The position numbers were made by a program, and so were the translations under genes. Positions 6,592-41,406 of a stretch of 64,000 nucleotides of DNA are shown here, piece by piece (the stretch's first letter is position 1; each line of letters opens with the position of its first letter). The notes beneath the pieces are model-generated. The model saw only the letters and a list, made by a program, of their open reading frames with translations. It was not told where the DNA came from and ran no database searches. The stretch is from Euglena gracilis (Eukaryota): the NCBI GenBank assembly GCA_039621445.1, contig CP154954.1, forward strand, positions 2,170,001 to 2,234,000, given 5' to 3'.

Positions 6592-6642
6592 ATAATACAG
6601 TGAATACAATAATACAATAATACAATAATACAATAATACAAT
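6592..6642. repeat. (AATACAAT)n microsatellite
   Basis: Direct reading. Confidence 0.9.
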
Positions 6643-10776: not shown

Positions 10777-10868
10777 TATGTGCCGTAGCAACAAATGGTG
10801 CACGGGTTGGTTGCGCATCCTGGATGCACTCAGGGGCTGGGTTGGGCCCAGCCGAGAGGTCGAGCTGG

Positions 10869-10981
10869 CTTGAGCTGGGGCCTGTGGCACGAAATTGGGT
10901 AAATGATTCTGGGACAGCGGAGAACTTGAGCTGGGGCCTGTGGCACGAAATTGGGTAAATGATTCTGGGACAGCGGAGAAC
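10869..10981. repeat. Perfect 56-bp tandem duplication
   Basis: cttgagctggggcctgtggcacgaaattgggtaaatgattctgggacagcggagaa occurs twice, starting at 10869 and 10925. Confidence 0.95.
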
Positions 10982-13543: not shown

Positions 13544-14807
13544 CAGTCAAAGCAAATGAAAATCATGCCGAAAATTTGGTGGAAAAAATGAGGATTAAAC
13601 CCCCCTCACTTATAAACCCCCCGGGGTTTATACAATCCGGTTTGGTTGGTCGGCTGAAGGGGGGGTTATAGGTGGGGGGGGTTACAGGTCCCGGAATTGT
13701 TGGTGAAAATCTGACCCCTCAAAATGACCCCGCTCCCAGCCAGACTGGGGAACCTCTGGGGGGGGGGGGGTGCAGTGGAAATGAAAAAAATCCCCAGATC
13801 GACGAAGCCAGGATAGACCAGGAAAAAAATTGGCGCAACCCAAAAATTGTCGAAAAGGAATGATCAGAAAAGGTCAAAATGATGTTTTTTTTGTGGGGTT
13901 TTCTAGACTTTTCCCTGGAAAAAAAAAGCCTGAAAAATCCCCACCCAGCTGGATTTTGGCAAGGTGCCAGTTTTTGGGATCAGCCAGGTCTAGCCCAGCA
14001 GCTGGTAGGACGATGCCTGCCCCGCCCCCAGCACCCACTGAGGGAATTCAGCTTGCATATTTTTCCAACCAGCACATTTTTCCACCTGGCTACTCCCCCT
14101 CCTCTTTCTGGGAATCCTTAAAAAAGGAAATTCCTGGTGGGAGGAAGCAACGTGGATAAAAAAAAGCAAAATCGATGTCAAAAAAGCACGATTTTTATAA
14201 TTTTGCTTTTTATTGGCCAAAAAAAGTCAAAGATTACAAAAAGGGAGGAAAGCTAGGTCCAAAATGAGGAGTTTTTCGAATTCGAAAACATTTTCCAGCA
14301 GAAAGAAAAAAATCGCTGGGAAACGCAAAAAAAGGTGAGAAAAAACAAAAAAAACTGCATATTTTTCAGAAATAAAAAATACACAAAAAAATCAAGAAAA
14401 AAACACCCCCATGTCCCACCCAGCAGTGTAATGCATCAACCTTCTATTGCAAAAAACTTGGAGGAGAAAAACTCAAAATTGGCAACTGTGCAGGTCTTCG
14501 TCTACATACGAAAGAACAGAAAACCAGCCCACACACGCACGCACGCACGCATGCCGCACACATGCACAGCACAACACACGAACTTACACACGCACACATG
14601 TGGCAAAAGATGACACCATCAGTGCAGAACCTTTGATCGGTTGGATTCTTTAATTGGTTTCTTTCCTGTAGGGGTCATCTCTAAGATAGCGTGGAAGATA
14701 CCAGGGGTGTCTTCCACTACCAGCGGTAAAAAAGAGAAAAGACACCGTGGAGAAAGAGATAAGAAATAGTTGGTGATTTCCCGTTACTTCGTCTCCCATA
14801 TCCGGAC

Positions 14808-15511: not shown

Positions 15512-16479
15512 AACTTGTGAAGTTAGCCATAAATGAAAGGTGGAAATACTCATAGTGAACCTATTTAAAGGTATCCCAAAATACAATTTGAAAATTCCGT
15601 GAAAACTAATCTCAGACGAAATACTCCTGGAAACAACGGACAATAAAAGATAGGTATGGACGAGGGGCTGTGTTGACACAAAACTATATCTGCCCCATCT
15701 CCAGCACTCTCCTCGAAGGGGGGACAACATTTTTATGACCTCCAATAATAGAAGTTGGGCAAGGGAACTCAAAACTTAACACAAAAACGAAAAGGGGGAA
15801 GAGGGTTATGTTGGTGCGATACCCCCAAAAAAGAGATTTCATTGAGTGAGCTTGCTTAACAATGGAATGCAAAAGCGCTGTGAAGACACGCGATATGCCC
15901 AGGGATTGATGGGAAGCCTTGGGAGGGGGGGGGTTGGCCCCCCTTCCCGACACGGAGGGCCCCCATCCCTTCTATTTCGAAAATGACATGGGCCCGGAAA
16001 ATTTTCGGTTTCGCGGACTGGCAAAGGGCAAAAAAATGTACGGAAATCGCTGATTTTCTTTGAAAATAAATCCAAAAAGGCTCATTGTTTGAACATTTTT
16101 TGTGGAAATATGGAAATCACTAAAACATCAAAAAAAAATGGGAAAATGCTCAAAAGTGAGGGAAAAGGGCGTTCATTTTCCGGTGCAAAGGGCCGGAAGA
16201 AAACTTTTCGCTATTTTTGGAACCTGCCGAAGAGGGGGGGTCCGGACACCCCCTCCCAACATCGAGGATGGGGGGGTCTGGACTCCCACCTACCACCTTA
16301 CCTTAACTTGTGAAGTTAGCCATAAATGAAAGGTGGAAATACTCATAGTGAACCTATTTAAAGGTATCCCAAAATACAATTTGAAAATTCCGTGAAAACT
16401 AATCTCAGACGAAATACTCCTGGAAACAACGGACAATAAAAGATAGGTATGGACGAGGGGCTGTGTTGACACAAAACTA
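15512..16479. repeat. 175-bp direct repeat (15512-15686 and 16305-16479) bracketing ~620 bp
   Basis: aacttgtgaagttagcc...tgttgacacaaaacta is identical in both copies; ORFs 15431..15772 and 16290..16634 share the peptide. Confidence 0.93.
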
Positions 16480-16511
16480 CCATGCTCCTTGTGTCGAACC
16501 CTGACCCCCAA

Positions 16512-16737
16512 CAGGCTTCTTTTTAAGACCCCCAGGGGGGGAGGGGGGGTCCCCCCACCCATCCAGGGTGGCGCCGGACCCCCCCCCCGGGGGGGGGGGG
16601 GGGGACCCCCCAAAAACGGGCCCGTTAAAGGCAATTTTCAGAAAATTTTGGCGCTTCGCGCCGAAAAGGTATACCCGGCGCCTCTGGCGTGGGACCCCCC
16701 ACCCGGGGGGGTCTTCTGAGTTAAAAAAAGAAGCCTG
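16512..16737. mobile_element. hAT-like MITE family B, TIR CAGGCTTCTTTTT, 8-bp TSD
   Basis: Perfect TSD acccccaa at 16504-16511 and 16738-16745. Duplicated at 56230-56455; relative at 54583-54762. Confidence 0.92.
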
Positions 16738-19700
16738 ACCCCCAACGCCGATCCACAATACCATCTGCACCACGTTCCACAAGATGCCAATGCATGGTTT
16801 CGTGTATTACTCGCATTTCTCCCGTGTGAGTGGGTCTGGGTGTGGGCGTGGGACAGGCCAGCAGTCAGCAACTGTCTGGAGCGCCACGCCGGGCTGATAT
16901 ACCGGTTGAGGGGCTGCAGCTCCCCATTCTGCAGGAAGGCCTCCCGCAGCTCCGGGGGGATCGCCTTCGGTGGGCGCGGCGGTGGGGCCACGGGACAGGG
17001 CGGGGCGGACCGGATGACACCTTCGGTGGGGGCTTCCCAGGTGGTGGGGTGGCCTGGTGGTCGGACCGCCCGGCCGAGGGACAGGGGGGGGGTTGACCCC
17101 ACCCACCTGCCACCCACAGGGTTTCAGGGGCCCCCGCACAGCCCTGCCGGGAGGGGAAGGGGGTTGAGAAAGTCGGGCAACTCCATGCATTGATTCCCAA
17201 ACAGATCCACAAGGGAGACCAGGTGGTCCAGATGCGTCCCAAAAAACCCCTTCCATGTTCCAGCACAGATGATCCAACAGACCGGGGGTGAATGGGTTTT
17301 AGCAATCCCCAAACTTCTTAAAAAATAAACGAGCCAATTCGTGACCCAAAAATGACACCACCCCGAAACAAACCAAACTCCAAATCCCAAAATATAACCC
17401 AATTCATGCTTTAGACCCAATTATCCAAAAAAAAATGGCAAAATTGCCAAATTCGCAGTTTGAGGGCTTTTTAAAAAAAATCCAGTTGCAAACCTTTTGT
17501 TTAGGTTAGGCAATGAAGGTTGGCCTCCGAAACCCCCCCCCCCGAAACGGTCGATCCAGGTCAAAACAACCCAGACGATCCAGTTCCTCGGGGGGAGGGG
17601 GTCTCGACCACCCGTTTGTTTACCCTCCAAGGATGAACGTCCACACTAGATAATCCCTGCTAGGGTCCGGGGGACTGCGCTGGTACCTGAAACCCTCGCC
17701 AAATCCCACAGAAAAAAAAAGTGCAACAAAATGTTCAAAAATCCTTCCACGGTAGGATTTTGGGCAATTGTTGCCCCGTTTCTCCGCGAGCTGCTGGCCC
17801 GATTGGCAATTTTTTCGCCTGGTTGGAAGAGCAAACAGACTCCCACCAAAAGAGCCCTGAACTTCTTGGAATTTCTGGATGTCCACTGATTCTTTCGGTG
17901 CTTGCAAAAGGCAGTTCAGTGAGTGTAGACAGCCTTTGGTGGGGTCAGTGTGAAAAGCAAAAATAAATGAAATGAACAGAAAGCCGTTCACAAAAAAATG
18001 TCAGTGAAGACAAGAATATGAAACTGTCCAGCTGCTTCACGTTTCCCCCAAGCAGCTCCGACCTCCTTCTCGAGTGATCTCAACCCCGGGCGGGGCCCCA
18101 ATTAGACAGGCCTAGCCCAGGGCTCCAAATTCAAAAAGGCAAAATGCATTTTTCGACTGTTTGGTTTTTTTTTGGGTGGGCAATGCTCGAAGGATGCAAG
18201 AAACCAATTTTTCTCCCATGTCCACCTGTATGAGCTGAGAACTTTCGGGTTTTTTTGCCCATTCTTTTGGCAGACCTTTTCAATTTATTTTAAGAGAAAG
18301 TCGAATGCCCTGGATCAGAAAAAATTCCACGTTCAGGATGACCCTGCTTCAGGGGGGGGGGAGGGCTGTTATCTGATTCTTTTTGCAGGCCCACCAGAGC
18401 GTGGCGTATGGAGAGGCTGCTATTAAAATGCTGTTTTCAAACGGTTTGAAAATTTTTTTCGCCCATGTCCCAAACATATCCAGGGCCATGGTGCAGCTGT
18501 TTCAGGTCACCACAGGTTTCTTTTTGCCCCGCCGAGAAATTATTCAGCATTTCAGCACAACAGGTATGAGCCAAAACAAATACAATCAGCACATCAAGAG
18601 TTTCCTCTCAAGTGGGCTGTTGGGTGGGCATCTCAAAATTGGAGAATAAACCCAAAATTTTCAACAATGCATCTCAGATCAAGGCTTAATTCAGGTCCTG
18701 AGGGCTGAATTTCAACCCCTGAAATGTCGTGGCAATAAGGCACACGTGGTCTAAAATGCAAAACGTTTTCAAATTGAGATCTCAAAAAAGGCTCAGAAAA
18801 GACATAAACAAAGAAGAATGAAATATTCTGAAAAAAAAGCAAACCAGAAAACCCCATGAAAAAAAGCAGAGAAAAGCAACTAGCCTTTTTGCAGGATTTT
18901 TGGCATTCCGGTTTGTTTTCATTGGCAACAAGGAAATTCAAATAACCCCGCCCCCCCCACCCAAACAAGGCCCAGGTCTTATTCTGGGTCTGTTGCTGGA
19001 CACTTCCAGGGGGGGGGTCTTATTTTTCTGGGGGTCTTTTTTTCAGATTTTTTTTGACCAATCTGGGCGCGAAAAAATTATCGGTTTTTAAGTTCCAAAA
19101 GCACCAAAAAATTTTCCTTCGGCGCTTAACGCCATGTGTAATCAGTGCAATTTGACATTTGCCATGTTTTTTTTTGACTCAAAAATCCCCAAAAAATTGA
19201 AATTACATCATTTTTGCATTTGAAATTGGGGGTTTGGTAATTTTCAGAGAAAACCTTACCGTCTCCGGCGTTTCGTGCTGTCAGGGGAGATGCTATTTTG
19301 GAGTCGTATTTTTGGATTTTTGCTCAACCAGCCCAGGAGGGTCTTGGGGGTCTTATTATTTTGGGGGTCCTGTTAGCGAGTCAATTGGATTTCCAGGACT
19401 AGGGGAGCCCAGGTAGAGGGGGGGGGGGGCTGGGATCCCCCCTGTTCACTGATGTTGACTTTCCGGAGAGGGGGGGGAGGGGGGGGTCCGGCGCCGAAGG
19501 CGCCGATTTTTTTTGAAAAATTGCCTTAATCGGTGTGCGCCCGTCGTTCCGGTTTTTGGTTTTTTCCCCGAAGTGAACAAGTACGGCCAGGTACACGGGG
19601 GGGGGGGGGGTCTCAGGACTCCCTGTTCACTTCCGAAGTGAACTGAACAAGGGGAGGCGGGGGGGTTCCGGGGTCCCGAAGTGGACTACCTGGCCTCCAA

Positions 19701-21089
19701 GGGGTTCAACCCCCTCCCAAAGGGGGAGACACAACCCCATCAGCTTTCTGCGAACGGGTCTGCCACGGGTGGACGGCATCTTGCAGAATGGCTGCACAAT
19801 GGAACCTCTTGTGCAGCAGCGGGAAGAACTCCCCCGGTTCCTTGCTCACTATGCTGCCGACCCACGATGGCCCTGAACAGCCCGTCGAGTGTTTCACGGA
19901 GAGTACTGGTGCCCATCGATGGGCATGACCACCAGTCATCGTTGGCTGTTTTTAACCTGCCTGAGTTCAACCTTCTTTCCTCCTTTTTGAAAGTCCACTT
20001 TGGAGTGATTTTGTCCACATCGCCTGCAGTCCTGAAAAATAATTAACCACCCCCCCCACTTTATTTGAGCACACCCACGGGCCAAAGGACCCCCCAAATG
20101 CTCAAATAAGGAGGGGGGTCAAATAAGGGGGGGGGGTCAAAAATTTCTTTAGAAATTGGGCAAAAAAATTTCGGTGCCTTCGGCGCATGAAAAAAAATTT
20201 TCCCCGGACCCAAATGCTCAATTAAGGGGGGGGGCCGAATAAAGGGGGGGGGGTATGCCCCCACACCAAAATGATGACGTCTCCAAAAAGCTTGACTTTG
20301 CATTTTTTTTGATATTTTTTCTGATTGTGTTGTTTGCTATTTGTTTCATTCACTCCTCATATTGCTCTTTTCTTGCAAAATGCTCAGCACCATTGAAAAC
20401 CAGGTGGGTGAGGTAGCAGACGTTGAGGTTCGGCACTCCCCCAACGCAACGGAAATATGGAGCTGGGGCATAAAAAAATTTGAACGGGCATTGGCATTGG
20501 AGAGCATTAAGGAAGGAATGCGCAACAAATGCGCGAAAGGCGCCAGGACATCAACACTCCGAGAAAATCCGACAATTAACAATGCTAGAAAAGCATGGAG
20601 GAGGAACATATCCTGCAAAAAAATTAAAAAAAAACACGGCGACTCTCTCGGGGGGGGGGCGTGGGTGTCTGGTGGATGAATTTTTTTGGTCCCAAATGAG
20701 GGTTTTTGCAACATTTCTGGCCCAACGGGCCAAACATTAAAAAAAACTGCCACATTTGCAAAACTCCAAAACTTCCTTCAAAAATCAAATTTTCAATTTT
20801 GGATGAATTTGGGGAAAATCACCAATTCTGAAAAAAATTGTGAACATGCTCTTTTGTCATTTTACCATTTGTCATTATCTTATTTTTGCGGTTCTTTGTG
20901 TTTTTTTTTGCCCTTTGGTGACTTTTAAAAAATAGCAATAATCAAAATTCAGGCGTTTTCGGCGGCATAAGAGTGACCTTCAGCAAAAATATTTTACACC
21001 ATAACTTTGGCGGTTGGCCTGACATGGCGTGGCGATGGGGTAAAATGGCATGGTGAGGGGTTGGTGGGGGGGGGGGTTGTGTGCCGACC

Positions 21090-22957
21090 CAGGGTTGCAT
21101 ATAGGTATAGGTATAGGTATAGGTATAGGTATAGGTATAGCTATATAGGTATAGGTTTGGGAAAAGACCTACTGGAGGGATGAAAATACCGCGCAGCATT
21201 AATTACCGATTGGATTAATTCCGCTCCTGGGCGAGTTTCTGTAACTGGCGATCTGGGCATTTTTCTGGCACGGCGGCCGGAATTAGGATCAGGCAAAAAT
21301 TAATCTGGATCGTGGAGTACGTTTTTTCTGTCTCACAGACGCCTGACGATCAGGCGCTTTATTAAAGAGCGGTATTAATCCTTTCGGTATTACTACCGAG
21401 CGGTATTTTAATCCCCCCGGTATACCTATATGTCGACAACCTATACCTATACCTATACCCATATGTCACGTATATGTCTCCAAAAAATCCCTACCCCATC
21501 TCAAAACCTTCGCACACATAAATGTGATCGGATCGGATCATCGACTGATTCTTGTGTCAGAAGTGCCAAAACAGCGAGACAAAATCGGCAGAAAGATGGT
21601 GAAAATAAAAATGGCAAATTCAGCCAATTCTTGGGCAACAGGTGGTTTGCTTTGCCAATACAAAATTGGGTGGTAAAAATAACATCGTCACAAAAGGGGT
21701 TCATTCTGAGAGTGTGATCTTGGGGTGCAAGTCCGTTCTCCATTGAAATTCCGGCGTAAAAGAGAGTTTGGACTTTTTTTTGCAAACAGGATTTGCACCC
21801 CAAATACAAATTCAGCTGGCTTCGAAAACTCAGATTCACAACACGTTTGGCCTCGGTCAAACGATCAGAAGGCCACAAGGAAACATCTCGATTGTATGCA
21901 TCTGCACTCTTTGGTTTTTTCAAACTACCACCCCACCAACGCCCTGAAAACCCCCTAGGGGGTGTCATTTATGGGGGGGTGTCACTTGGGGGTGTTGGGG
22001 TCGCGGGGGGGGGTCGCGGGGGGGAAATGGGTTTTGCGGCAGGTCACGTGTGACTTGTGTGACATCATCGTATCCTCTAAGTTAAGATCCCAATTAGGAA
22101 TTTGCGTGCCATTTGGGCCCCGCGACCCCCCCGCGACCCCCCCCGCGACCCCCCCGCGACCCCACCCTGAGCCCGATTCGGCTTTCCAAAAAGGACAAAA
22201 AATTGCATTAATTAGGAATTTGCCACTCAATTAGGAATCAAAAACATGAAAAATTGGCCCCAAATTCCTAATTGGACCTATTTTTGGAGGAACACCCCCC
22301 TATGTGGGGTCCCCAAAAAAGCAAGGCAAACCCCTTGGGCAGGTCATCGTCTGAAAAAAATTCCAACCTGGGAAGGAGTAGTGTCACTTATGGGGGGGGG
22401 GGTGTTTTCCGGGTGGTCACTTTTCTTTTTGCAAATGCATACTCCAAACCGGCGATGCAACAGGAAAGGGATTGCATGGTCAAAGAGGTGCTGAACATCT
22501 CCCTCCTTTTTGTTACGCGGCCTTTCTTTTGGGTCTGACACGGGCATTTTTTGAGATATAAGTGGGCGTATGGGTGAATTTGCCGTGGGAAAATGGGCTG
22601 AAAAAAATTATATTGACTTTTCCAACATTTTTTACCATGAAAATTGCCGTCCCAACCCGAAAAATTGGCCAAAAAAAGCGACTTTTTATTCACATTTTTC
22701 GGCTTGGAGGAAGACAAAGTTTCTTCGGAATGGAAGACATGAAGCTTCAAAGAAGGTTGGGTGATAAAGCATCAAATAAAAACACGGGCAAACAATTCCT
22801 TGCAAGGTCGTTCATATTTCCCCCCAAAAAATGTTTTTGGTCACGACATATAGGGGATATAGGAGATAGACATATAGGAGATATAGGAGGTGGAAAAACC
22901 TGTACCTATACCTATACCTATATCTCCTATATCCCTATATTCCTATGTGCAACCCTG
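21090..22957. mobile_element. 1.87-kb non-autonomous TIR element, CAGGGTTGCA..., 7-bp TSD, TATAGG/CCTATA subterminal arrays, nested MITE(s)
   Basis: TIR cagggttgcatatagg / cctatgtgcaaccctg; gccgacc on both flanks. (TATAGG)n at 21100-21155 and (CCTATA)n at ~21440 and ~22905. TA-flanked MITE nested at 21172-21420. Copy at 60810-62677. Confidence 0.85.
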
Positions 22958-23249
22958 GCCGACCCTCCAGAAATAAAACAGAACAGGCATCTCCAAAATA
23001 AATAAAATTTTTGTCACCATTATGAAACATTTGTGATTTTCAGTTCTTGTGGTGAACGCCAAAAGCTCTTTGAAAATCAAACGGGGAGCATTCTCCAATT
23101 CATTCGAACCTGCTGTCATTTTGGGCTCTTTTCCCAAAAAGGGAACTTATGTTTTATGTCCGTCGGTTTGTGAAGGATCACCATAAATATTTGGTAGTGG
23201 ATAATGGTTTTTTGACATGCAATATTTTTTGATTTTGCGATATTTGCGA

Positions 23250-23426
23250 TACCCCCCCCTTTATTGTCCCACCGACCTGCCCCCGGGAGGCCCGACCGGA
23301 CAATAAAGGGGGGGGGACAATAAAGGGGTACCAAAGGAATTTCATTGGCCGGGCCAAAAAAACCCCCCGTCGGCCGGGGCCCAGGGACAATAAAGGGGGG
23401 GGGACAATAAAGGGGGGGGGGTGGTA
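23250..23426. mobile_element. TA-flanked MITE family D (GGACAATAAAGGGG repeats)
   Basis: tacccccccctttattgtcc ... ggacaataaagggggggggg(t)ggta. Near-identical copies at 26751-26926 and 62970-63145; diverged copy at 36958-37117. Confidence 0.9.
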
Positions 23427-23603
23427 TTGTGCGACATCCAATCTCTAACCTTGCCCACTGGGAGGTTTTCAGGATGCCGCTGCTGCTTCGCGGATCCCGG
23501 TTGGACTCCTCGCCAGATTTACTATTGGAGGCTAGGCGTGCCGCTCGGGGGGGGGGGGGGGGAGGTCCGCCCCCTGCAGCCGCTCGCCCCCCCCCCCTCG
23601 CCC

Positions 23604-24391
23604 CCCCCGTCAGTGCCCCATTTTGGGCCGCCAACTCATTGACTTTGGGTCAAAACCGGGTCAAAAAAGTCGAAAAAATCGCAAATTTTTTTTGCCCGAA
23701 ACGCTGTTTTTTGGCCTCCCGAACCCAGAAAACCCGTTTTTGAGCCAAAAATGAGCGATTTTTGACCCCTTGGCCTCCCGTTTCGGGCACAAAACCCTTG
23801 CATTTCAGTCCAAAGAGCTCCACGGAGTGGCCGGGCCGGGCCAGGCCAGGCCGCCGGGCTGCTGGGCCGGGCCGCCGGGCCGCTGGCCGGGCCAGGCCGG
23901 GCCGCCAGCCGGGCCGGGCCGGGCCGGGGCGCCGGTCCGCCGGGCCGCCGGCCGGGCCGGGCCGCTGGGGCCGCCGAGCCGGGCCAGGCCGGGTCGCCGA
24001 GCCGGGGTGGTCTCCCAAAGAGCTCAGCTCTACGTCGCACGCTGGTTGAAGGGCCCGGTAGCCAAACGGGTAAGGAGGGTGTTTGGCCGGGGACCCCAGA
24101 GGGCCACTTGGGGGTGGTGTCGTTCAGGGGAAGGGGTAATACCGTTGTGGGAGGCACAGCTTCACCCAGACCGTGCCCCGGGCCCAGGGAAACGTCTCTT
24201 TTGGCCCTTGCCACAAGGGTCCTGGCCATTTAGGTCATTTAGGGAGCAACAGAGGCTAGGGTTTTCCGGGTCCGGGAGACCAAAAAACATCGTTTCGGGC
24301 AAAAAAAATTTTCGGTTTTTTTCGACTTTTTCGGCCCGGTTTTGACCAAAAGTCAATGGGTTGGCAGCCCAAAACGGGGCGCTGGCGGGGC
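23604..24391. mobile_element. Foldback-like structure: ~135-bp imperfect inverted arms around a (GGCCG)n-rich core
   Basis: 23604-23740 (gccccattttgggccgccaactcattgactttgggtcaaaaccggg...gaaaaccc) is the imperfect reverse complement of 24258-24391. Core 23829-24005 is almost pure GGCCG/GGGCC. Confidence 0.75.
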
Positions 24392-25239: not shown

Positions 25240-25700
25240 CCGTAGCATGGCCCAGTTCCCACGCGGGTCGAGCTTGCGCACCATGTTTTGCGCGCCGATT
25301 GCAATCGATTCAGCCGCGTTGGGGAGGCTGACGCCGGCCTGCAGCGGGGCGAGTTTGGCGACTGCGAAGGAGTGCTTTCCCCACGAGGCGGCGAAGGGTC
25401 TCCCCGGCTGCGATGGGGTGGACACCGTCATCCTTTTTCCGGAGAGGTGTGAGGTTGGCAGAGCACCACCAGGCAGATGCTCTTGGGGCAGTGCACCGGT
25501 GATCCAGGCTTGGGTGAGCTTGGGGGGGCTTGCAGGGCGGAAACAAGACCGCCACTGCAAACGCCGAGACGTGCTGGAAGCCAGTGCTCATCTCCGACCC
25601 GGGAGAGGTGCCGCCATCATCAAACTGGAAAACGTGACGGACAGCCAAAAAGGCCACCCATGCCTGCCGGACCGACAAGGCCCCGCCTCCGGAATGGGCA
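25240..25700 (-). mobile_element. CRE/SLACS-like non-LTR retrotransposon RT fragment (frameshifted)
   Basis: Peptides WWCSANLTPLRKKDDGVHPIAAGETLRRLVGKALL and VAKLAPLQAGVSLPNAAESIAIGAQNMVRKLDPRGNWAML (early RT motifs: K..G.RPIA.GE.LRRL, Q.GV). Confidence 0.85.
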
Positions 25701-25789
25701 TCTGTGATGGACGTGGGAGGTAGGCGTGTCGCGGTTCGGAGTTCCGTCATCAGTGTTACGTATTGGCCGTGTCTGAATAGTTGGATCCG

Positions 25790-27399
25790 CCAGATCCTTC
25801 GCAGGTTGGTTGGGAAAGCGCTGCTTCACACTGGGGCTGCCAAAGACCAGGTTGCACGGCTTAGCCCCCTGCAGACCGGGGTCGGGGTCTCTAACGCCTC
25901 TGAGTCCATTGCCATTACGGCACAAAACATGGTGAGGAAGTTGGACCCAAGGGGCAACTTGGCGGTTCTCCAAGTAGATCTGAAGAACACGTTCAACACC
26001 CTCGACCACACTGTCCTGCTCCAAGAGGCGCAGACGCGCACACCCGCACTTTTCAACTACCTGCGGTTCGCATATGGCCAACCCGCGCATTTGTTCAGTG
26101 AGGGGCGAGTGCTATCATCCACAAGGGGCACGCACCAAGGCTGTCCCCTGGGGCCCATTGGCTTTGCGGTCGGGTTTGCACACTATAGCCGAGACAATCA
26201 GCCAACAGGCAGAGTTACTTTGGTCCTCGTGATCCCTGCTGCTTGCCAGGGTGCAGCCCGCACCGCGGCTCTGTGTCGATACTAAACCCCCCCCAAATAA
26301 TACCCCCCCCGGGGTATTACTTTTTCGCCCGAAGTCCCGGCCCGAGGGGGGGGGGTATTATTTGGGGGGGTTATTTTTCCAAAATTTTCGAAATTTTCCG
26401 AAGTCCCGTAAAACCCAAAATAGCACCCAAAACCGCCCTTTGGGGTCATTTTTTGCACTTTCTTGTGAAATTTACCATTTTTGGAGGTCAGATGAGCCAG
26501 AAAAATCCATTTTTTCCATAATTTGTTGTCAGAAATTGTGATTTTTACCTACATTTTCAGGTCAAAAATCCGGGCCTTCGGCCCGAAACCAGGGGGGGGG
26601 GGTATTATTTCGGCGGCCGAAGTCGGACCCCAAGGGGGGGTATTATTTGGGGGGGGGGGGTGTTATTTGGGGGGGGTATTATTTGGGGGGGTTTACCATG
26701 CCCCCCCATATAAGACCCCCCCCCGGGATTTTGGCTCCCGAGGGGGGTCTTACCCCCCTCCTTTATTGTCCCACCGACCTGCCCCCGGGAGGCCCGACCG
26801 GACAATAAAGGGGGGGGGACAATAAAGGGGTACCAAAGGAATTTCATTGGCCGGGCCAAAAAAACCCCCCGTCGGCCGGGGCCCAGGGACAATAAAGGGG
26901 GGGGACAATAAAGGGGGGGGGTGGTATATGGGGGGGGGCATGGTACACCCATGGACACAAAAAGGTTGCATGCCCAGCTTACGCGGCAACCCCGGTTGAT
27001 AGACTCTGCCAGCAGCCTGCCAACAACCTCGCCTCCGCACTGGGATCCCAACACCCCGAGAGCCAACAATTGCTCACCCCTGCCTCCTTCGCTTCCGCCT
27101 CTGGAAACGACACGTCACAGCGGTGGTGGCAGACCCAGCTATCACGTGCCACGGTGGACGGCCTGCTAAACCGAACCTTGCCAAGAGACCAGGCCCGCCT
27201 GATGGAACAGGCCCATGGTGTCGGTCACGGATGACCCCACGAGGCCCTCCACACGACGATTGACGCGGCAGACTACCGCCCTGGGCTGAAATGGTGGCTG
27301 GGACTGCCCCTGGCAGACTCAACCGGCACGTGCGCAGGATGCCAGAGCGTCACTGATGTCCACGGTGACCACAAGATGTGCTGCATCCAGAATAACTTT
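25790..27399 (+). mobile_element. CRE-like non-LTR retrotransposon, 5' part (RT to CCHC), internally deleted and interrupted by MITEs
   Basis: ILRRLVGKALL...PLQTGVG...VDLKNTFNTL...YGQPAHL...SSTRGTHQGCPLGPIGF (YxDD region missing). After the MITE block 26283-26945: WWQTQL...RDQARL...DYRPGLKWWLGLPL...CAGCQSVTDVHGDHKMCCIQNNF. Confidence 0.9.
26283..26945. mobile_element. Three stacked or nested TA-flanked MITEs
   Basis: 26283-26695 (taaaccccccccaaataa / ttatttgggggggttta); 26694-26945 (taccatgccccccc / gggggggcatggta); family D 26751-26926 inserted at a TA inside the latter. Confidence 0.85.
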
Positions 27400-30300
27400 C
27401 TTAGACGGCGCTACAGGGTATGATGGTTTTTTGAAAAAAATCTGCGGTTCCCAAGCCCGTTTCATGCTTTCTGGCCGCGCACTGGCTGTGAAGGGGAGAC
27501 GCCGATCCAGGAAAGGGGCAAGACCGCGCAGTATTCAGAGGCATTCGGGCCCGATTCCCCGGTTTTTCACCTCCCCCTGGTGCCCACCAGGCCGATGCAC
27601 CCCGCAGGGCAAACGTTGAAAATGAGGCAAATTTACGTCCCCCGTGGGGTTATGCTCTGTGTAGTGCACAGGTGGGCCAAGACACAAGGTCAGGGCCGCA
27701 CCGGCAGTTGGGAATGTCAGGCACCATGTGGCACCGACCTCCACCAAGACAATAGGGGCTTTGTATAGAATGAGGGGTGGTTGGAGGGCGGAAAAACAGC
27801 GTTTTCAAGCCGACCTGCGGGACCGGGGATGGACGCCCAATTTGAAAGGAAAAATCTTGCACTGGGAAAAAAGCCCTTCCAGGGGGTGAAAAAATGCCGA
27901 AAATGGCTCCCCTCCCCGATGCAATTTATGCAGTTGGACAGCACACTTTGGGAACCACGGTTCCCAAACGAGACAGCCGATGCGTTGAGCAGGCTTGGGG
28001 ACAGTGTTCACTGCCCTCCGGGGCAGAAGCTGGGGGAAACACAGCCTGGTTGAAGCAGCAGCATGGGATGCTTTCTCCCCCCAGGCAAAACAATGCAAGA
28101 TCTGGTTGGAAGAACGGTGGACCAAGACCTCCTTGTTCTTTGCCAGGGTCTCTCTGAGGTGATGCTTTCAGCGGGGTTTCAAACCAGCCTTTTGATTTCC
28201 TGCCCTCTGGATTATCCCACATGGAACCATGCGTCACCAATTCTAAAAATGCCCTTTTCAGGAATGGCACAAAGAGCACTTGAAGGGGCATGTTGTGCGA
28301 AGAGTGCTTGTCGTGAAATGAAATGAACGAATTTCGGCAAAGATCCCTGTGCAACATCTTTTCATGGGAGGAAAATAAAATGTCCATTGGTAACCCATAA
28401 GAACTGGGAAGAATGAGGAACCAAACACCGATCCCATGAAGAACTTTTCAGCAGCAAGGCTAAGGGGAATGCACTCTGGAAAAGAGATTCGGAAGTTAAA
28501 TTGGGATAGCAGTGATGCTGCTTCTGTTTCAACTTGCAAAAACAGGGTGGATGGTGGAAAGACACTGGCGTGGGATGGAGAACAGTGGTCCTATGGTCTG
28601 GGTATTTCCTCGTGGGCCGCTTCCACTTCTCAATCCACTGTCTACAACCTTCCTTGTTGCCCTGCACATATGAATGTGAATGGGAGCCTCCTGCCCCAAT
28701 TGCAATGGCAGAAGCACATGTAGAGAGGTGCATTGCTCCCGCGGTGATGAGTTTTGTCCATCACTAGACAACCATCACAGATTGATCCAACGGATCCTCC
28801 GAGCTTCCCAGCACGCCATGGTGCACAAAACAAGCGTCAAACATAAGGCGATCCCAATAAAACTGGCGGCCTCCCACATGAGCAGATTCATCTACTTGCC
28901 ACCCGAATCCCTTGGAAGCCCTTGACTTTCGGCTGAAAGCCAAAGAGCAAGAATTTGTAATGTATCAAATGGTCAGGCTGAGCAACAACACAAATAATAT
29001 CTCAGCCCCAACCTTCACCACCAAAAAAAAATGCAAAATATCCCGCAGAAATCTTTGAGATTCTGGATTTCAAACGAGAGATCTTTATTTGATGAACACA
29101 TTGAAAATCATTGGAGAAAAGTGGTCCATTTTTAATGGACAAAAAGGAAAATTCAAATTTGGGAACCGTGGTTCCTATTTTTTTTGTTTGACAAGAATGG
29201 TCCAGATTGTGTCAGGAGCCCATGCTCCCTTAGAAAGGAAAAGGGGGGAAAGAGGAAATTGTTTGAACCTTAAGAAGGCAGAATGGCAAAAAAAAAAAAG
29301 CTTGAGAAGAAGGGGGTAGGGTCACAGGGGGGCATGGGGGGGTCAAGGGGGGAGAAATGGGGGTTCGCAGCAGCTTTGCAGAATTGTCAAAAAGGACAAA
29401 AAAAATGCTGGAAATTTGCTTTAGACTTGGTGTTTCCTCAACTTCTGGGGTCCCGAATCCGGGTCATTGCGGGTCGGGTCACGGGTTCACAGGGCAGGGG
29501 GGTTACGGGGACGACACCACCAAAAGGCTTGCAGCACCCGGAAAAGTGGAGGCCTTGGTGCGCTTAGTTGTGGAGTGTCCCATGAGGTTTGCATGAAGTG
29601 AGATTCAAAGGCGCGTGGTCTTACCCTAAGCGCCTTTGTTTGGGCCCTTGCAGTCTTCAAATGTGGTCTGTACATTTTTGTTTGGACTCCAGGAGATGAA
29701 CGGCTGTATGTGCTTTTTTGTCTTTTGATGAGTCAAACGAGATTTGCCTGTTGTCAACTTGTAATCCTAGTTTTGATTTGGGGTACAACTGGCCATAGAC
29801 CTTGGAGAATTTAGCAAAATCTTTTTTTGGGGGGGTCTGGGGCCAAAAAAAAACACGAGAAGAAATATATTGCCTAACAAAGGCAACCATTTTAAGTCCT
29901 ACCAGCATCCATGATGCCACACCTTGGATACTGGACAGCAACATGAAATGTTGATTGGAGCAAAATCAGCAAAGCCACAACTGCACAGGTGCGCAATGGG
30001 GAAGAGGCTTCAAACCAAACCAACCACGGTGGATGGCCCACGCCAGGGAAAATGAATGTTGTCACCCCTCACTGTGATAGCAAAATTGGTACTGTAATAA
30101 AAACTGTTCTTTTCTCTTTATGGACACAATGGTCCCAAACCGTGATGGAATGTCAAAAATTAAGACCACGGTCCTCAAAGACTGATGAGAGAAACGTTGG
30201 TGTGTGTCCAGCATGCAACTTTTGTTTTGAGTCCTGGGGCTCACACGGTCTGACTCTTTGATGACGGGATTGTTCGCTAGTGGCCGAGAGAAAATCATGG

Positions 30301-32916
30301 CTAAAGCTTCTGTACAATGAATACAATTGAGGGAAAAAATCTTCCAAATTGAGAAATTCTGGGATGCCCAGAATTTCTCTGCAAATTTGAATGACAAAAT
30401 GATTTGATGGATGGATTGGAAAATGAGCAATGGAAAAAAATCACCTTCGTTCAAATTTGTTGAGAAATCTGCTTTCTTCGGGGGGAAGACAAGGCTCTTG
30501 TCCAAATACAAATAAGTCATCACACCACATGCTTCAGAGGACACTTCGAGGATAATAACTGGCTTGTTCAAAAAAATATGCACTTTTGAAAAAACGACTT
30601 GAGTTTTGTCATCCAAACTGCACTTTGTTAATTCCTGGGTACCAGCCAAAAATCAAATTTTTGTTCAATTGTCATGCAGACTTTGGCAGACGTGTTCCCA
30701 TCTTTTTCTTGCCTATTGACATGCACATTCGTTCACATGGCGTACATCACATTAACACCCATGGAACGCACAGCCCACCAAAAATAGCACAAACTGCCTG
30801 TTCCTTGAGGTCATGACTTTCTATGTGCAATGTTCCACGTTCCCTTGTTTGATGACTTTCCAGAGTGCATACTCCGCTCCATCATGCTCTTGCGAGTGCA
30901 ACAATGCCGAGGGCCACATTTGAGTTGAACGATCAAGGGCTTTAACACTGCATGTGGCAAAGGGCGATGTCTTAGCTAAAATGGCTCAGCTAAAATGTTA
31001 CCAATAAAATGGAGTCCCGCGCTTTCCTTCTCCCGTGTTTCAGAGGAGTTTTCAAGCCATTCAACATCGCTTGTTTGCAAACTTAATACACAAAATAACA
31101 GACTTATGTCTGTTTCACCAAGGCACCACATTTCTTTGCCACGGTGGGACAAATATATTTTTGAAACAAAAAATAGTGAATTGATCCCGCAACCATTGAG
31201 CAACCCAAAAGGTGATGTGCAAAAGGACTATTTATGAGTGAACGCCTTGGGTTCACGTTTGTTAATCCCATCCTGACCAACACGGGTGCACAATGACATC
31301 TGATTGGGGGGGGGGTGGAACGACCAAAATACAAAAGCCCTCGCCCCCCCCCTGAGGTGGCCAGAGTTTTAAGAAAGACAATGGCGAAAAGGATTAAAGA
31401 AAATTGAGGTTAGAATATTTCCTGGAGTCAGTTTTGGGTTGGCCACCCTCTGGGATGCAGCTTCCAAACGACGCACATGCATGGTTGCAATTGGGTCCGA
31501 TAAATCACCCACACGGGGACAGCAAGCATACTGATGGCTGGAAGCAGTTTTCCTTCTGAATATACGGCCCAAAGCAAGGTTCTTTGGAAGTGGTTTCTTG
31601 GTTTAACATTGCACAACTGACATTTCACGGCAATAAACTTTGGCGGATGTGTGTCTTGGGTGCTTGCGTCACTGTGCGTCCCAACGCCTCCCTATCGTGG
31701 AAAACCATTGTATTTTGAGGTTTCTTGGTGTGAAAAATGCCACCCTTGGCAAGCAATGGGATAACCGAACTAAAAATGTGGCTGGATCACGCCTCTAATC
31801 CTAACCCAGTTGTTCCTACCGCAGCTAGCACCACAACCTAATTTCAGCACTCCCAAAAGCCGACCGTCGAACTTCACAATCCCTAACAGCATAAAAAAAA
31901 ATTCATTTGGTGCTTTGCAAATGGCGACTTTCCGGTTCACCCTTAATGCAAATCCTGAAGATGCGAGAGGGGAAACAGTTGCAGGCCTTGGGGTTGCAAT
32001 GACCTTCTATCACATGCACTTCTCATGTGTGTGATGTACCACTGTGCCAATGAAAACAACAAAAAAAGGTGCTTCATCCGATGGCACCCCCCCCAAAAAG
32101 CAGAAAATGAGGAAATCAAAAGGCAGTGCAAAAAAAAAATGGGAACCGTGGTTCCCAAAACTTCCCAACCATTGCCCCGATTATTCAAAGGCCAAACAGG
32201 AAATGTGACCTTCGCAAAACATTGGAAATGGGGCTATATCAAGATCATTTGCAATTCAAGGCTTGTCGCTTTCCATTGCTACACCCATTTCTTCTAAGCA
32301 CCCCCCATGACATGAAGTAGAACACCAGTACCTTGACTGCCGGATCGATCAAACAATTTGGGAACCGTGGTTCCTAAATTTCAAAGATGACCCCCACCCT
32401 GCAAACAGGGGCTTGCAAAACGGATGGGGGGAACAAAAGGTGCGTGCTGCCAAAAAAAAACAATTCTTCATTTTGAAGCAGTGTGGCAACTTGGACTTCA
32501 CTTGTTGACACCCACGGAGGGAATGAAGACACACATCAACTTTGACGCCCACCCCTACAACTTTGGCTCATTGACCCCAACCTGTCCGAGGCCCCGACCA
32601 ATTTCAAAAAAGGGGGGGTTCAGACATCCAAAAAGTCTTTTGAAAAAAAGTTCAGGGGGGGAAGGAAAGCGTGTTTTACCCCCCCTCCACGAAAATGACG
32701 TTGGGCAGCGTAGGGACCCACACTCAAACCAGGGCCACAGTGGCACCGCCGCAAAACCCACACACAGCGGGAACACCCAGCCAGCGCACAGCACCGGCCC
32801 TGGGTGAGCCATGAAAGCACGTTGCGCAGAGCCGAGGCCCCACGCCAACGCCTCGAAAAAGTGGTCATTTTTTGGGAACCGCTGATTTTCGATCATACCC
32901 TGTAGCGCCGTCTAAG
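27400..32916. mobile_element. 5517-bp TIR DNA transposon, superfamily unassigned; 5-bp TSD ACTTT
   Basis: cttagacggcgctacagggtatgat (27400-27424) is the exact reverse complement of 32892-32916. acttt at 27395-27399 and 32917-32921. Removal rejoins the CRE reading frame. Confidence 0.92.
28540..29110 (-). pseudogene. Decayed cargo frame, possibly 2OG-Fe(II)/AlkB-like dioxygenase
   Basis: One frame reads ...ISAGYFAFFFGGEGWG*DIICVVAQPDHLIHYKFLLFGFQPKVKGFQGFGWQVDESAHVGGRQFYWDRLMFDACFVHHGVLGSSEDPLDQSVMVV**WTKL... The HxD motif is not intact, so the assignment is tentative. Confidence 0.3.
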
Positions 32917-33260
32917 ACTTTGCCAACAGACACACCGCCGTCTAGGACGCTTTATTCAACCTCTTGCCCACAAACGGCCAAAGTGTTCAGCGCGAGGTTC
33001 CGGTACCCAATCAGCCACATACCTCTCTACGGCCCGCCGACCTGCTGCTGGCCACATGGCAGGATGGCAAGCCTACAGCAGTGGACATCACCGTTGCGCA
33101 CAGGTGGCAAGCAGCGGAGAGGAGTGCCTCCAGGGAGCGTTGGAGAACCTTCCTGAAACGACGTGAGCAAGCTAAGCACACCAAGTACGACATCCCGTGT
33201 CGGAACGGTGGGTGGTCGTTCGCGACGCTGGCCATGGGCACGTGGGGAGGCCTGGACCCT
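32917..33260 (+). mobile_element. CRE-like retrotransposon, 3' part (restriction-like endonuclease domain)
   Basis: NF-ANRHTAV*DALFNLL...VQREVPVP...LRPADLLLATWQDGKPTAVDITVAH...REQAKHTKYDIPC...FATLAMGTWGG (RH, E, RPAD..D, K..KY motifs). Confidence 0.9.
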
Positions 33261-33382
33261 CCCATCCTGATCCACCAACCCTCAATTAAACGATAGTCAG
33301 CCGAGCCGGGGGCTGCAATCAGGTGGGCCTCGTCTTTTCTTGCGTTTAAAAACACACAAAGCATTTTTCGCAGACCTGCTTG

Positions 33383-33690
33383 TGCCACCTGTGGCCCAAA
33401 ACTGGCCACCAGTCGTTGCCCAAAACTGGCCACCATGTGTGGCCCAAAACTGGTCACCATCTGTGGCACAAACCTGGCCACCATATGTGGCACAAAACTG
33501 GCCACCATCTGTGGCACAAAACTGGCCACCGCATTTGGCCCAAAACTGACCAGCATCTGTGGCCCAAAACTGGCCACACATTGGGCCTGAAACTGGCCCC
33601 TACATCTGGCCCAAAACTGGCCACCATCTGTGGCACAAATTTGGCCACCACCCGTGGCCCAAAATTGACCACTGCCTGTGACACAAAATT
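33383..33690. repeat. 22-bp minisatellite TGTGGCCCAAAACTGGCCACCA
   Basis: About 13 imperfect units; a related degenerate array lies at 36489-36686. Confidence 0.92.
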
Positions 33691-33826
33691 GTTCAGCACT
33701 GTTTTTTTTTGGACAAGGACATTTGTTGAACAGCAGAAAAAGAAGGCAACAAACAAAAACAAGTCTCATACCAATTGAAGCGTGCTGACTTAATAAACAT
33801 TCTCCAGGTAACATGACTTCAGGTGA

Positions 33827-34225
33827 TACCATGCCCCCCCCTTTACTGTCCCCCCCCCCCTCACTGTTCCCACTGGGGGGACGGGAACAGTACAGTGTCA
33901 TAGCACTTTTTGTAAAGGATTCTTTGAACACAAGGCAAAAAAGGAGATTTTTGGTTGGTTTTAGGTGCTTTCCATCCGACCAAAATCCAACCTAATGCCA
34001 AAATGGATGTTGTGGAGGTGCAATTTTCAAGCATGTAAACCAAAAAAGCTTCATTTTGCCATTTTAGGTGGCCTTTTGGGTCTAACTTGGTTGGTTGGTT
34101 CATGGCCCATGGGAACAGTAAGGGGGGGGAGCTCGTCCCCCCCCTTGCTGTTCCCCCCCCCTTACTGTTCCCATGGACCCAAAAGGGGGCCACGGGATGG
34201 GAACAGTAAGGGGGGGGGCATGGTA
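33827..34225. mobile_element. TA-flanked MITE, TIR TACCATGCCCCCCC..TTACTGT
   Basis: taccatgcccccccctttactgtcc / ggaacagtaagggggggggcatggta. Same termini as the 26694-26945 element. Confidence 0.85.
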
Positions 34226-34404: not shown

Positions 34405-35780
34405 TATCGGACGTTGCTACGGCTGACCGTGCCCTGACCGGACTTCACCACGGCCTAGGTCAACTGGGCTGCTCTTTGAACTTCGCCAAGACCACGCCCT
34501 GGGCCCTGGGACACGGCACATGCCTTCCCTCCCCGAGGATTCCGTACTGCGGCGGGCATCCGTCATCCCAACCATATATACACCAGATTCCGGCGTCTCG
34601 GTCCTGGGTGTCCCAATTCACCACCCGGCTTCCCGTGGCTTTGTTCGTCAGCAGTTAGACAGCTGCATCTCCAAGAATGAACAGGCCTGCACCTTGCTGG
34701 GCTCTGTACGCGACCCGCAAGTACAGCTGTCCTTGCTTCTTTTCTGCCTCGACGCTTGCAAGTTCAGCTCACTGCTTCGCAGCGCTCACTGCGTGCCGTT
34801 CACTGACCTCCTGTCCCGTGCGGACAGCTGTCTCCGGTCCACCTTCCAACAGATCCTGGATTGCTCGGTATCATACACACAATGGGCCCAGGCTTCCCTT
34901 CCCCTACGCCAGGGCGGATTCGGCATACGGTTATCCATCGACAGCGTGCTACCTGCCCGTCCGAGTGCCCTGTTGTCATGGATTACCTGTGCACCATCCT
35001 CCTTGGGTTTGGGCAACATCTCACGGGCCCCGATTGATGGACTGCCCGAATTTCTGTCCGGTCTACAGATACGACTGGGTGACGCCTTTGAACCAGTGCG
35101 GAAATGGATCGGGGAGAGTTCCTTAAGTCCCGAGGACACTTCCCACCATGACCAAGCTTGGTGGAGTGAACAGCTCCGCCAGGCCGCACGTCCGGCATTC
35201 CTGTCTGCCCTAAATGACCGGGACCGTGTCCGCTTTGAGCATCAAAGTAATTCTATCTGCTCAAGCTGGATCGGTGCCCGCCCATCCAAGGCTGCAGGGT
35301 TTGCCGTCGACGGCGCGTCTTTCCGCCTCATGATGAAGACTGCCTATCATCCCCCTCAGCCTGGCCGGTTCCCCCGGCCCCCTCGGCTGCGGGTCGTTGA
35401 TCCTTTTGGGGACCACGCTCTGTGCTGCCACAAGAATAAATTGTGGGAACGCCACCACAGAGTACAGCACTTCCTTTGGTCCCAGCTACAGGCACGGGGT
35501 ACTCCGCACGCCTTGGAAATCTCGGTGGCCGCCGATCAAAAGAGGGGCGCGGACATCTTCCTTCCCCATTGGTCCGGCGCTGCGTCCTGGGCCATCGATG
35601 TGGGCATCAACCACCCCTCTCCGCCCAGTGCCAGTTGGAGCCTCCCCGCCTCGTGGGAATTACTTCGCAGCAGAGCACTTAGGAAGACTACCAAATACGG
35701 AGGCCGCTGCCAAACCCGAGGTGCGCGATTCTCCCCCATGATCCTTAGTGTATGGGGTTCCTTCGGGGGAGAGAGCCAAC
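34405..35780 (+). mobile_element. 5'-truncated CRE-like non-LTR retrotransposon (RT thumb, linker, partial CCHC, RLE)
   Basis: GCSLNFAKT, GVSVLGVPI, QASLPLRQGGFGI, DPFGDHALCC, RHHRVQ, KRGADIFLPHW..AIDVGINHP, RKTTKY, FSPMILSVWG in ORF 34520..35881 and the preceding frame. Confidence 0.92.
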
Positions 35781-36064
35781 GTGTACCGGGGGTAGCCAAA
35801 AGTCGTCTGGCATTAAAGGCCGACCGGCTTTTACCCGTGCGGTTTTATGTTGCCCCCTTGCCCTCCACCCGTCGGGCTTAATCCCGCCCCCCTCCCCGGA
35901 GGGGTACGACCGGTTTTATTCCGACCCTGCTATACTCCGCACCCAGCCCTTGCGGTAAAAAAGTGAATCAGTGAAAGTGAGTCGAGGCACGCAAGTGCTC
36001 ACCGTTCACCGAGGCCGTGGGCCGGGCTTTACCGACGCCTCTCGCGGTCTCCCCCGCCAGGCGA

Positions 36065-36957: not shown

Positions 36958-37117
36958 TACCCCCCCCCCCCTTATTGTCCCACCGACCTCCCCCCGGGAG
37001 GCCCGACCGGACAAGATGGGGGGGACAATATGGGGGTACCAAAGGAATTTCATTGGCCGAGCCAAAAAAAACCCCCCGTCGGCCGGGGCCGAGGGACAAT
37101 ATTGGGGGGGGGGGGTA
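36958..37117. mobile_element. MITE family D, diverged copy
   Basis: Same internal sequence as 23250-23426, TA-flanked. Confidence 0.85.
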
Positions 37118-40012: not shown

Positions 40013-40864
40013 GTCGGGGGGCCCCCCACCATGCCCTCCCGTATTTTCGGTAGCGCCAATTGTTAGGCCGAGATAAGGTTTTTTTCCTTCAGCATTGAAG
40101 AGTGCACGGTGATGTGGTGGGTGGGCAGGGTCGACTCCCCACCAGGCTTTGCCGCACAGCCCTGACAGCACCCCCAAGTCCCCGCAACCCCACACTCACA
40201 TCCCGCACTCCCGCCTTAATGTGCAATGTATTTTGCATACATATTTTAATTTGTGTGCAAATTTTCTGGCATCATTTTTTTGATTTATTAGGCTTTTGGC
40301 CGCCCCAAACCCCCCCAGAAACAAAAACAATCAACCTTCTCTGCACAATGTGCGGTGCAGTGTCTTTTTTGTGTGCCAGATTTTTTTTAATTTTTGTCTT
40401 ATTTTGTTTTTGTCCTGTTTTTGTAGATATGGTGCGTGATGTGTGATGTTGGCAGCAAATTATACTCCTCAGCTCTGACAGATCCATCAATCTCCAGCCC
40501 CCCCCCCCTGCACGCACACCGTCACCCCACAAACGCCCCCCACACTCCCCATACCCCCACCCCCCACCTGTTGTTGTTGGGGCAGAGTATCAGGTAACCC
40601 AAAATCAGGATTCCAAGTTTTCTGGGGCCTGCAGGATCCAGAGGGTCTATGGGACGGGGGCTCGTGGGCAGTTGAGCAACAAAAGGAATTCGCTTCCAAA
40701 ACGGTTCGGCAACACAAGGGGTTTTGTTATTTTGGGGCCCTGGGACACTTGAGCAACAAAAATAATGTTTATGGTGCACCTTTTTCGCTGTTTGAAATAT
40801 GTTCTACGAAGTTTTAGGCCAAACAAGGCAAATCAGTATTGGGGGGGGGGCTTAAAAAGTCGGT

Positions 40865-41406
40865 GTCCCAGGGCCCCAAAATAACAAAACCCCCTGTGTT
40901 GCCGAACTGTTTTGGAAGAGAGTCCCTTTTGTTGCTCAACTGTCCCAGGAAGCCAATCCCTTTTGTTGCTCAACTGTCCCAGGGCCCCAAAATAACAAAA
41001 CCCCCTGTGTTGCCGAGCCGTTTTGGAAGCGAGTCCCTTTTGTTGCTCAACTGTCCCAGGGCCCCAAAATAACAAAATCCCTTCTGTTGCCGACCCGCTT
41101 TGGAAGCGAATTCCTTTTGTTGCTCAACTGTCCCAGGGCCCCAAAATAACAAAATCCCTTCTGTTGCCGACCCGCTTTGGAAGCGAATCCCTTTTGTTGC
41201 TCAACTGTCCCAAGGCCCCAAAATAACAAAATCCCTTGTGTTGCCGAACCGTTTTGGAAGCGAATTCCTTCTGTTGCTCAACTGTCCCAAGGCCCCAAAA
41301 TAACAAAACCCCCTGTGTTGCCGAACCGTTTTGGAAGCCAATCCCTTTTGTTGCTCAACTGTCCCAGGGCCCCAAAATAACAAAATCCCTTGTGTTGCCG
41401 AACCGT
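40865..41406. repeat. 77-bp tandem minisatellite (~7 units) with one inverted unit at 40668-40762
   Basis: Unit tgtcccagggccccaaaataacaaaa(c/t)ccc.tgtgttgccgaaccgttttggaagcgaatcccttttgttgctcaac; ORF-track starts are spaced by 77 nt. Confidence 0.95.

Follow-up and report, generated by a model that had tools for sequence, protein, structure and literature searches.

A probable large non-autonomous DNA transposon with two-part ends, nested in a retroelement of Euglena gracilis

Introduction

What is the 5.5-kb stretch of DNA that splits the reading frame of a retroelement in Euglena gracilis, and how did it come to be there? The locus lies on contig CP154954.1 of the GenBank assembly GCA_039621445.1. 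The whole stretch of DNA that was analysed, here called the window, comprises 64,000 nucleotides (positions 2,170,001 to 2,234,000 of the forward strand), and all coordinates given below are counted from its first letter. Positions 27400 to 32916 of the window are occupied by an inserted element bounded by inverted repeats. This element most probably belongs to an abundant family of class II cut-and-paste DNA transposons with terminal inverted repeats (TIRs), a family of large (5.5-kb), non-autonomous elements of which one copy has here inserted in the presumed endonuclease-coding part of an older retroelement of the non-LTR (long terminal repeat) type. The assignment is made at the level of the class only (class II, TIR-bearing, non-autonomous), and no superfamily is assigned.

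Boundaries of the inserted element

A first-pass annotation of this DNA, made from the letters alone, had described perfect 25-bp TIRs with an imperfect inner extension, flanked by an exact duplication of ACTTT. Both descriptions are borne out. The outer repeats at 27400-27424 and 32892-32916 are complementary at 25 of 25 positions (sequence CTTAGACGGCGCTACAGGGTATGAT) and the inner extensions at 17 of 18, and ACTTT is present at 27395-27399 and again at 32917-32921. The termini begin CTTAGAC and the element ends CT..AG. The features that delimit it are as follows.

27395 to 27399, no strand: left ACTTT flanking direct repeat, the apparent target-site duplication (read directly, and supported by the empty-site overlap)
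27400 to 32916, no strand: inserted element, 5,517 bp, 47% G+C, without recognisable coding capacity
27400 to 27424, plus strand: left outer TIR, 25 nt, starting CTTAGACGG (inverted-repeat comparison and TIR search)
32892 to 32916, minus strand: right outer TIR, 25 nt (inverted-repeat comparison and TIR search)
32917 to 32921, no strand: right ACTTT flanking direct repeat (read directly, and supported by the empty-site overlap)

When the 64-kb window was searched with the 25-mer, allowing up to 3 mismatches, two sites were returned, which are the two ends of the element; none of 100 shuffles gave any match. The inverted repeat ends by about 55 nt from the termini without further extension, and when the two 700-nt ends were aligned globally, their score did not exceed that of shuffled sequence.

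Precise insertion into a retroelement

The sequence on either side of the element belongs to a retroelement that is read on the plus strand.

25638 to 26282, plus strand: host open reading frame (ORF) weakly matching a reverse transcriptase (RVT_1 at E 1.2e-5; the 25.6 bits fall short of the Pfam cutoff of 29.6 bits)
26938 to 27399, plus strand: host C-terminal coding region that precedes the insertion and ends in GDHKMCCIQNNF (P0001 alignment)
32922 to 33254, plus strand: same-frame continuation of the host past the insertion (ANRHTAV..., RPADLLL...AVDITVAH; P0001 alignment)

It had been proposed that removal of the element restores the reading frame of this host. Positions 27400-32921 (5,522 bp, corresponding to the element and one copy of ACTTT) were therefore removed in silico, and the product was searched by tblastn with P0001, a 484-aa (amino acid) ORF at 34427-35878 that belongs to a neighbouring and distantly related retroelement copy. 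After removal, P0001 aligns in a single frame over 269 aa across the junction (26938 to ~33254) with an E value of 2e-14, GDHKMCCIQNNFANRHTAV lying opposite GDHALCCHKNKLWERHHRV, and the proposal thus holds.

Copies of the host retroelement that lack the insertion are also found. Contigs of X1, X2 and X16, which are public DNA runs of the same organism, were compared with the window; the comparison gives the best-supported rows, beside which stand a further 4,938 loose ends and 325 joints. Among the joints listed, the empty-site joint 27394>32917 occurs in contigs of all three runs (two in X1, one in X2 and three in X16). It leaves out 5,522 bases, and at the joint there are 5 letters that could belong to either side. 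The empty-site contigs have an identity of about 90% with the window (in record 12, for instance, 11 of 135 nt and 14 of 106 nt differ), which indicates that the empty sites are paralogous copies of the host retroelement family and not an allele of this locus.

Taken together, the empty-site joint and the restoration of the frame place the TIRs exactly at the boundaries of the insertion, a generic feature of class II elements. The overall picture given by the first-pass annotation, of an insertion with TIRs at its bounds and an apparent duplication of 5 bp, lying within a retroelement that bears a reverse transcriptase, is sustained by the TIRs, the frame and the empty sites. A Tc1/mariner-like reading, with a TA target and a TIR starting GACGG, was considered and rejected. 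It predicts an empty site that is 10 bp longer and a frame that is shifted, and is excluded by the 5,522-bp skip and by the host frame, which is kept by that removal alone.

A family with many sequence variants

The element belongs to a multi-copy family, of which many sequence variants, extending over the whole 5.5 kb, are present in the three DNA data sets. In each of the three runs there is coverage of all 20 depth bins that lie in the element or overlap it, and between 11 and 24 distinct contigs are found at single positions such as 27539 and 27616. At the positions listed, these two among them, all of the contigs differ in base from the copy in the window. This uniform difference indicates that the window copy carries private changes, mostly transitions, with respect to the bulk of the family. 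In sixteen DNA runs, 21-31% of the 31-mers sampled from the element are present; judging from this 31-mer sharing, and not from a measurement, the window copy would be some 4-5% diverged from the common variants.

Members of the family differ in length and in location. Public contig variants are found without 126 bp at 30754-30881 (where they have 24 other letters instead) and without 213 bp at 32338-32552, and the family thus has internal length variants. A 710-nt contig (record 3 of X1, which is the same as record 19 of X2) matches 32657-32917 at ~82% and then continues into unlike sequence. Since it diverges past 32917, it represents a relative with a different right flank.

No other copy of the element was found in the 64-kb window, either by blastn or by a TIR search with up to 3 mismatches. 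A 20-mer of the TIR has no match in metagenome contigs, and a 21-mer none in prokaryote genome contigs. A search of the full-text literature with the terminal 12-mer and the core of the palindrome described below gave an unrelated primer match only; Repbase and Dfam lay outside that search, which does not show the family to be unpublished.

Two-part ends and internal palindromes

Each end of the element is made up of two boxes, an outer one of 25 nt and an inner one of 18 nt with the sequence AAAATC(T/A)GCGGTTCCCAA. The spacer between them measures 12 nt at the left end and 2 nt at the right, and this 10-bp difference corresponds to about one turn of the DNA helix. The inner box holds a half-site, GGTTCCCAA, which recurs in the interior as part of a palindrome, TTGGGAACC-RY-GGTTCCCAA, where it is paired head to head around a 2-nt centre.

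27425 to 27436, plus strand: left spacer, 12 nt, the last three A's of which begin an exact AAAAAAATC at 27434-27442 that runs into the inner box
27437 to 27454, plus strand: left inner box AAAATCTGCGGTTCCCAA, which holds the half-site GGTTCCCAA and is complementary to the right box at 17 of 18 positions
27948 to 27967, no strand: internal palindrome TTGGGAACC-AC-GGTTCCCAA, 548 bp from the left end
29159 to 29178, no strand: copy of the internal palindrome with 2 mismatches to the pattern (pattern search)
32139 to 32158, no strand: copy of the internal palindrome with 1 mismatch (pattern search)
32358 to 32377, no strand: copy of the internal palindrome with 1 mismatch, 539 bp from the right end
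32872 to 32889, minus strand: right inner box, reverse complement AAAATCAGCGGTTCCCAA, 2 nt (32890-91) from the outer repeat

The palindrome has four matches in the window, where 0.06 would be expected, and all of them lie within the element. The 9-mers GGTTCCCAA and TTGGGAACC occur in exact form eight times on the plus strand of the window, seven times within the element. As the contexts of the four palindromes are unlike one another, it is the motif itself that is the repeated unit. A site near 46022, at which AAAAAAATC stands close to GGTTCCCAA, was read and is not an element end.

The palindrome was also sought elsewhere as a 22-mer. There are no matches in viral contigs. In metagenome contigs it is found at 11 loci, each a single site and otherwise unlike the element; these loci are probably unrelated to it and bacterial operator-like. 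In two unrelated metagenome contigs (L008, 4001-4065, and L010, 1450-1514), a 22-nt palindrome, TTTGGGAACC-AT-GGTTCCCAAA, lies about 20 nt from a similar palindrome, GGGAACAATTGTTCCC. These pairs look like the paired operator of a bacterial regulator and have no relation to the element.

Comparison with known superfamilies

Large non-autonomous class II TIR transposons are relatives of cut-and-paste elements that have a non-coding interior and are mobilised in trans. The element is alike to them in its TIRs, its short duplication, its precise empty site, its many copies, its lack of a transposase gene and its sub-terminal motifs. Its 5.5 kb puts it far above the size of a miniature inverted-repeat transposable element (MITE). 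P elements have an outer repeat and an inner binding site at unequal distances, with 8-bp duplications and other termini; the likeness of the present element to them is one of layout only, in that its outer-to-inner distances differ by about one helical turn. Ginger2 elements end TG..CA.

Repbase classes non-autonomous elements by the length of the duplication and by alignment of terminal positions 1-11 (PMC4455052). As the first-pass annotation had suspected, the CTTAG termini match none of the published superfamily signatures that were checked, namely the CAC of Transib, the third-base G of hAT and the TG..CA of integrase-type elements. The duplications of Ginger2 are 4-5 bp long, and integrase-like transposon groups end TG..CA, TGT..ACA or TA..TA (PMC10045372). 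The element has an apparent duplication within the 4-5-bp range of the Ginger2/TDD group, whereas its ends, unlike those of Ginger2/TDD and other integrase-type elements, are CT..AG, and no match to the rve integrase was obtained with Pfam.

It is conceivable, although unlikely, that the element stands, as a non-autonomous member, for a superfamily not yet described, or for a branch of the Transib/RAG-like elements that has diverged deeply and lost the CAC rule. Such a group would be characterized by 5-bp duplications, CTTAG termini and two-box ends one helical turn apart, and its transposase would also bind the palindromes.

A narrower proposal, that the element is a divergent non-autonomous member of Transib itself or of its RAG-like relatives, with a 5-bp duplication, two-part ends, 12/23-like spacers and CTT in place of CAC, appears quite improbable. 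Duplications of 5 bp set Transib apart from other superfamilies, and its TIR consensus consists of CACAATG, a 23-bp spacer and then AAAAAAATC, with some families having 12/23-like asymmetric ends (PMC1131882). The element resembles this arrangement in its apparent 5-bp duplication (ACTTT), in its two-part ends and in its unequal spacers, the inner box of the left end lying 10 bp deeper than that of the right end. Moreover, an exact AAAAAAATC is found at positions 35-43 of the left end (27434-27442), and GAAAATC at positions 27-33 of the right end, where AAAAAAATC is matched at 6 of 9 bases (positions 25-33). However, AAAAAAATC is common, with 25 matches on both strands of the window, and a copy within ~30 bp of an end would be met by chance with a probability of ~0.01, the motif having been sought post hoc. 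Counted in the Transib style, the spacers of the element are 27 and 17 nt as against 23 and 12. The first three bases of the element are CTT, whereas all Transib families keep CAC, a triplet that both RAG and ProtoRAG require in order to cleave (PMC1131882, PMC8289069). The preference of Transib and RAG is for GC-rich targets (PMC1131882), and the single one known here, ACTTT, is AT-rich. Finally, Pfam revealed no transposase domain, whether RAG1-core-like or other, either in the element or among the ORFs of the window that were scanned, which comprise 20 of the 53 of at least 150 aa and 99 of the 116 of at least 110 aa upstream of 56197, and together account for all 116.

hAT elements usually make 8-bp duplications, and in some hAT lineages they are shorter. 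A non-autonomous hAT element from a lineage that makes short (5-bp) duplications could have TIRs as short as the 25 nt seen here, along with a sub-terminal motif repeated near both ends, and in these respects the element is alike to the superfamily. The third base of its termini is T, however, and that of hAT 5' termini is always G according to the legend of Figure S7 in PMC1131882. In addition, its apparent duplication is of 5 bp and not 8, and no hAT transposase or dimerisation domain was found in it by Pfam. An origin among the hAT elements is held to be quite improbable.

Coding capacity of the interior

The element has no detectable coding capacity and is a non-autonomous member of its family. 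When its 71 stop-to-stop ORFs of at least 50 aa were compared with Pfam at E values up to 0.1, no family was found beyond isolated matches at chance level, and the six complete frames, with stops written as X, gave no family at E values up to 1. The 10 of these ORFs that are at least 109 aa long likewise gave no PHROG family. The longest ORF encodes 196 aa (30065-30652, minus strand) and has no homologue among 1,835,955,588 representative proteins. Its protein-atlas recognition score is 889, within the range of shuffled or random sequences; a score of 2300 is reached by 91 of 100 real families. Simulating the element 500 times with a first-order Markov model gave a longest ORF of 188 aa on average and of at least 196 aa in 35% of cases (P = 0.35), and the probability that the longest ORF of the second-best frame reaches at least 173 aa was 0.24. 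Stops number between 54 and 71 in each of the six frames, without strand bias.

These results do not support the earlier description of the interior as several kilobases of decayed minus-strand coding-like sequence, since every frame holds 54-71 stops, the ORF lengths are those of chance and Pfam returns nothing. The suggestion that the transposon carries cargo fails in the same way, as there is no Pfam family and the longest ORF found no relative in 1.84 billion proteins. It is very unlikely that the element was once autonomous and has decayed, or carries cargo, with protein genes too novel, intron-rich or broken to be recognised. In favour of this reading, autonomous elements can be of such a length (5.5 kb), a single minus-strand frame holds both of the longest ORFs (196 and 173 aa), and a few RNA reads fall at 29878-30154 and 31540-31816. 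Against it stand the chance-level ORF lengths and even stop density, the silence of Pfam, PHROGs and the protein collection, and a recognition score far under 2300. The divergence of the window copy, if it is indeed of the order of 4-5%, would also be too low to erase a domain, such that a transposase domain known to Pfam should still show.

No evidence of a structural RNA emerged either. Rfam gave no match at the gathering threshold over the window, the one miRNA match within the element being at chance level (E 0.98), and a tRNA search found none. No RNA run is listed among those that share 31-mers with the element. In the RNA run X21, of which ~5% was sampled, there are almost no reads on the element, and nothing firm on its expression can be drawn from them.

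That the insertion is no transposon at all, and instead an inverted repeat that arose by chance, a fault of the assembly or DNA taken up at a break, is scarcely credible in spite of its single copy within the window. The 25/25 TIRs coincide exactly with the edges of the 5,522-bp insertion, which three data sets define independently through their paralogous empty sites, and in these data sets the whole stretch is moreover multi-copy.

A proposed mechanism

For a large non-autonomous class II transposon, the features described above suggest how mobilization may occur. A transposase encoded elsewhere in the genome would recognise the outer 25-nt repeat together with the inner AAAATC(T/A)GCGGTTCCCAA box. 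The spacers of 12 and 2 nt, which differ by about one helical turn, could render the two ends distinguishable. The transposase would then cut the target with a 5-bp stagger, and repair would yield the duplication of ACTTT. The four TTGGGAACC-RY-GGTTCCCAA palindromes are probably auxiliary sites, predicted to be bound by the same protein.

Several points weigh against this account or limit it. The partner transposase was not found, the 99 window ORFs of at least 110 aa yielding no Pfam family at E values up to 1e-4. The boxes and palindromes are putative binding sites, a role deduced from the sequence. The summed word depths along the element are fairly even (~5,900-14,600 in X1, 3,000-9,400 in X2 and 250-3,500 in X16), and they are not equivalent to copy numbers. 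Variants with large internal deletions, or insertions nested within the 5.5 kb, may exist.

The length of the duplication and the CTTAG ends are known from one copy only. T27399 and A32917 form a complementary pair, and the TIR is 26 nt long when they are included. Because of this complementarity, a duplication of 3 bp (CTT) or of 4 bp fits the same sequence too, and the duplication could be of either length with the termini shifted by one base. The 26-nt/3-bp, the asymmetric 4-bp and the 5-bp readings all predict an identical empty site. The relative of the right end described above aligns through A32917, which fits either a 26-nt repeat or a one-in-four coincidence.

The host retroelement and the surrounding window

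The C-terminal region of the host contains a Cys/His motif followed by RPADLL...(A)xD(I/V), which is PD..D-like. A region of the form GDHxxCC ... RPADLL ... (A)xD(I/V) is common to the host, P0001, P0002 and P0003, and the host shares its C-terminal region with P0001 and with two database proteins, one of them with RVT_1. This layout is known from retroelements with a restriction-like endonuclease, and the region may encode a nuclease. Comparison of P0001 with solved structures gave no match. The protein-atlas clusters nearest to P0001 are eukaryotic, most often from Cnidaria and Porifera. Antisense to the 3' part of the host there is an open frame of 326 aa (33014-33991, minus strand), which lies over a short tandem repeat at 33386-33702 and has no Pfam family.

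A block of short repeats is also nested in the host retroelement, at 26277-26930. These repeats are rich in G-runs, and the block contains GGGGGGGTATTATTTGGGG motifs and palindromic pairs of C-runs and G-runs. Its summed word depth rises to 1.9 million in X1, and it probably consists of one or more extremely abundant MITE-like families. The bin at 26277-26553 is the only one with substantial RNA depth (16.3 and 12.7), the next two bins being lower. A repeat of ~178 bp is present four times with 90-99% identity, at 23250-23427, at 26751-26927 (in the nested block), at 36963-37112 and at 62970-63146.

The rest of the window is repeat-rich, and no recognisable host gene was found among the ORFs scanned. 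Positions 3-4729 form a tandem duplication with a unit of ~1.8 kb and an identity of 97-99% (pairs 350-2151/2177-3976 and 3-750/3977-4729). A segmental duplication of 7.8 kb, with 99.6% identity, links 16479-24283 with 56197-64000, and its second copy runs past the end of the window. A tandem array with a period of ~77 bp is found at 40657-41406, with an inverted arm at 40657-40950.

Significance

A new and cleanly delimited repeat family is useful for the annotation of a very repeat-rich eukaryotic genome and for the dating of nested insertions within it. The two-box ends with their unequal spacers, along with the repeated palindrome, provide concrete candidate binding sites. The finding would matter more if the partner transposase proved to be unrelated to known superfamilies. 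Were the partner instead to be a relative of RAG and Transib that cleaves non-CAC ends, it would bear on the evolution of end recognition in the lineage behind V(D)J recombination.

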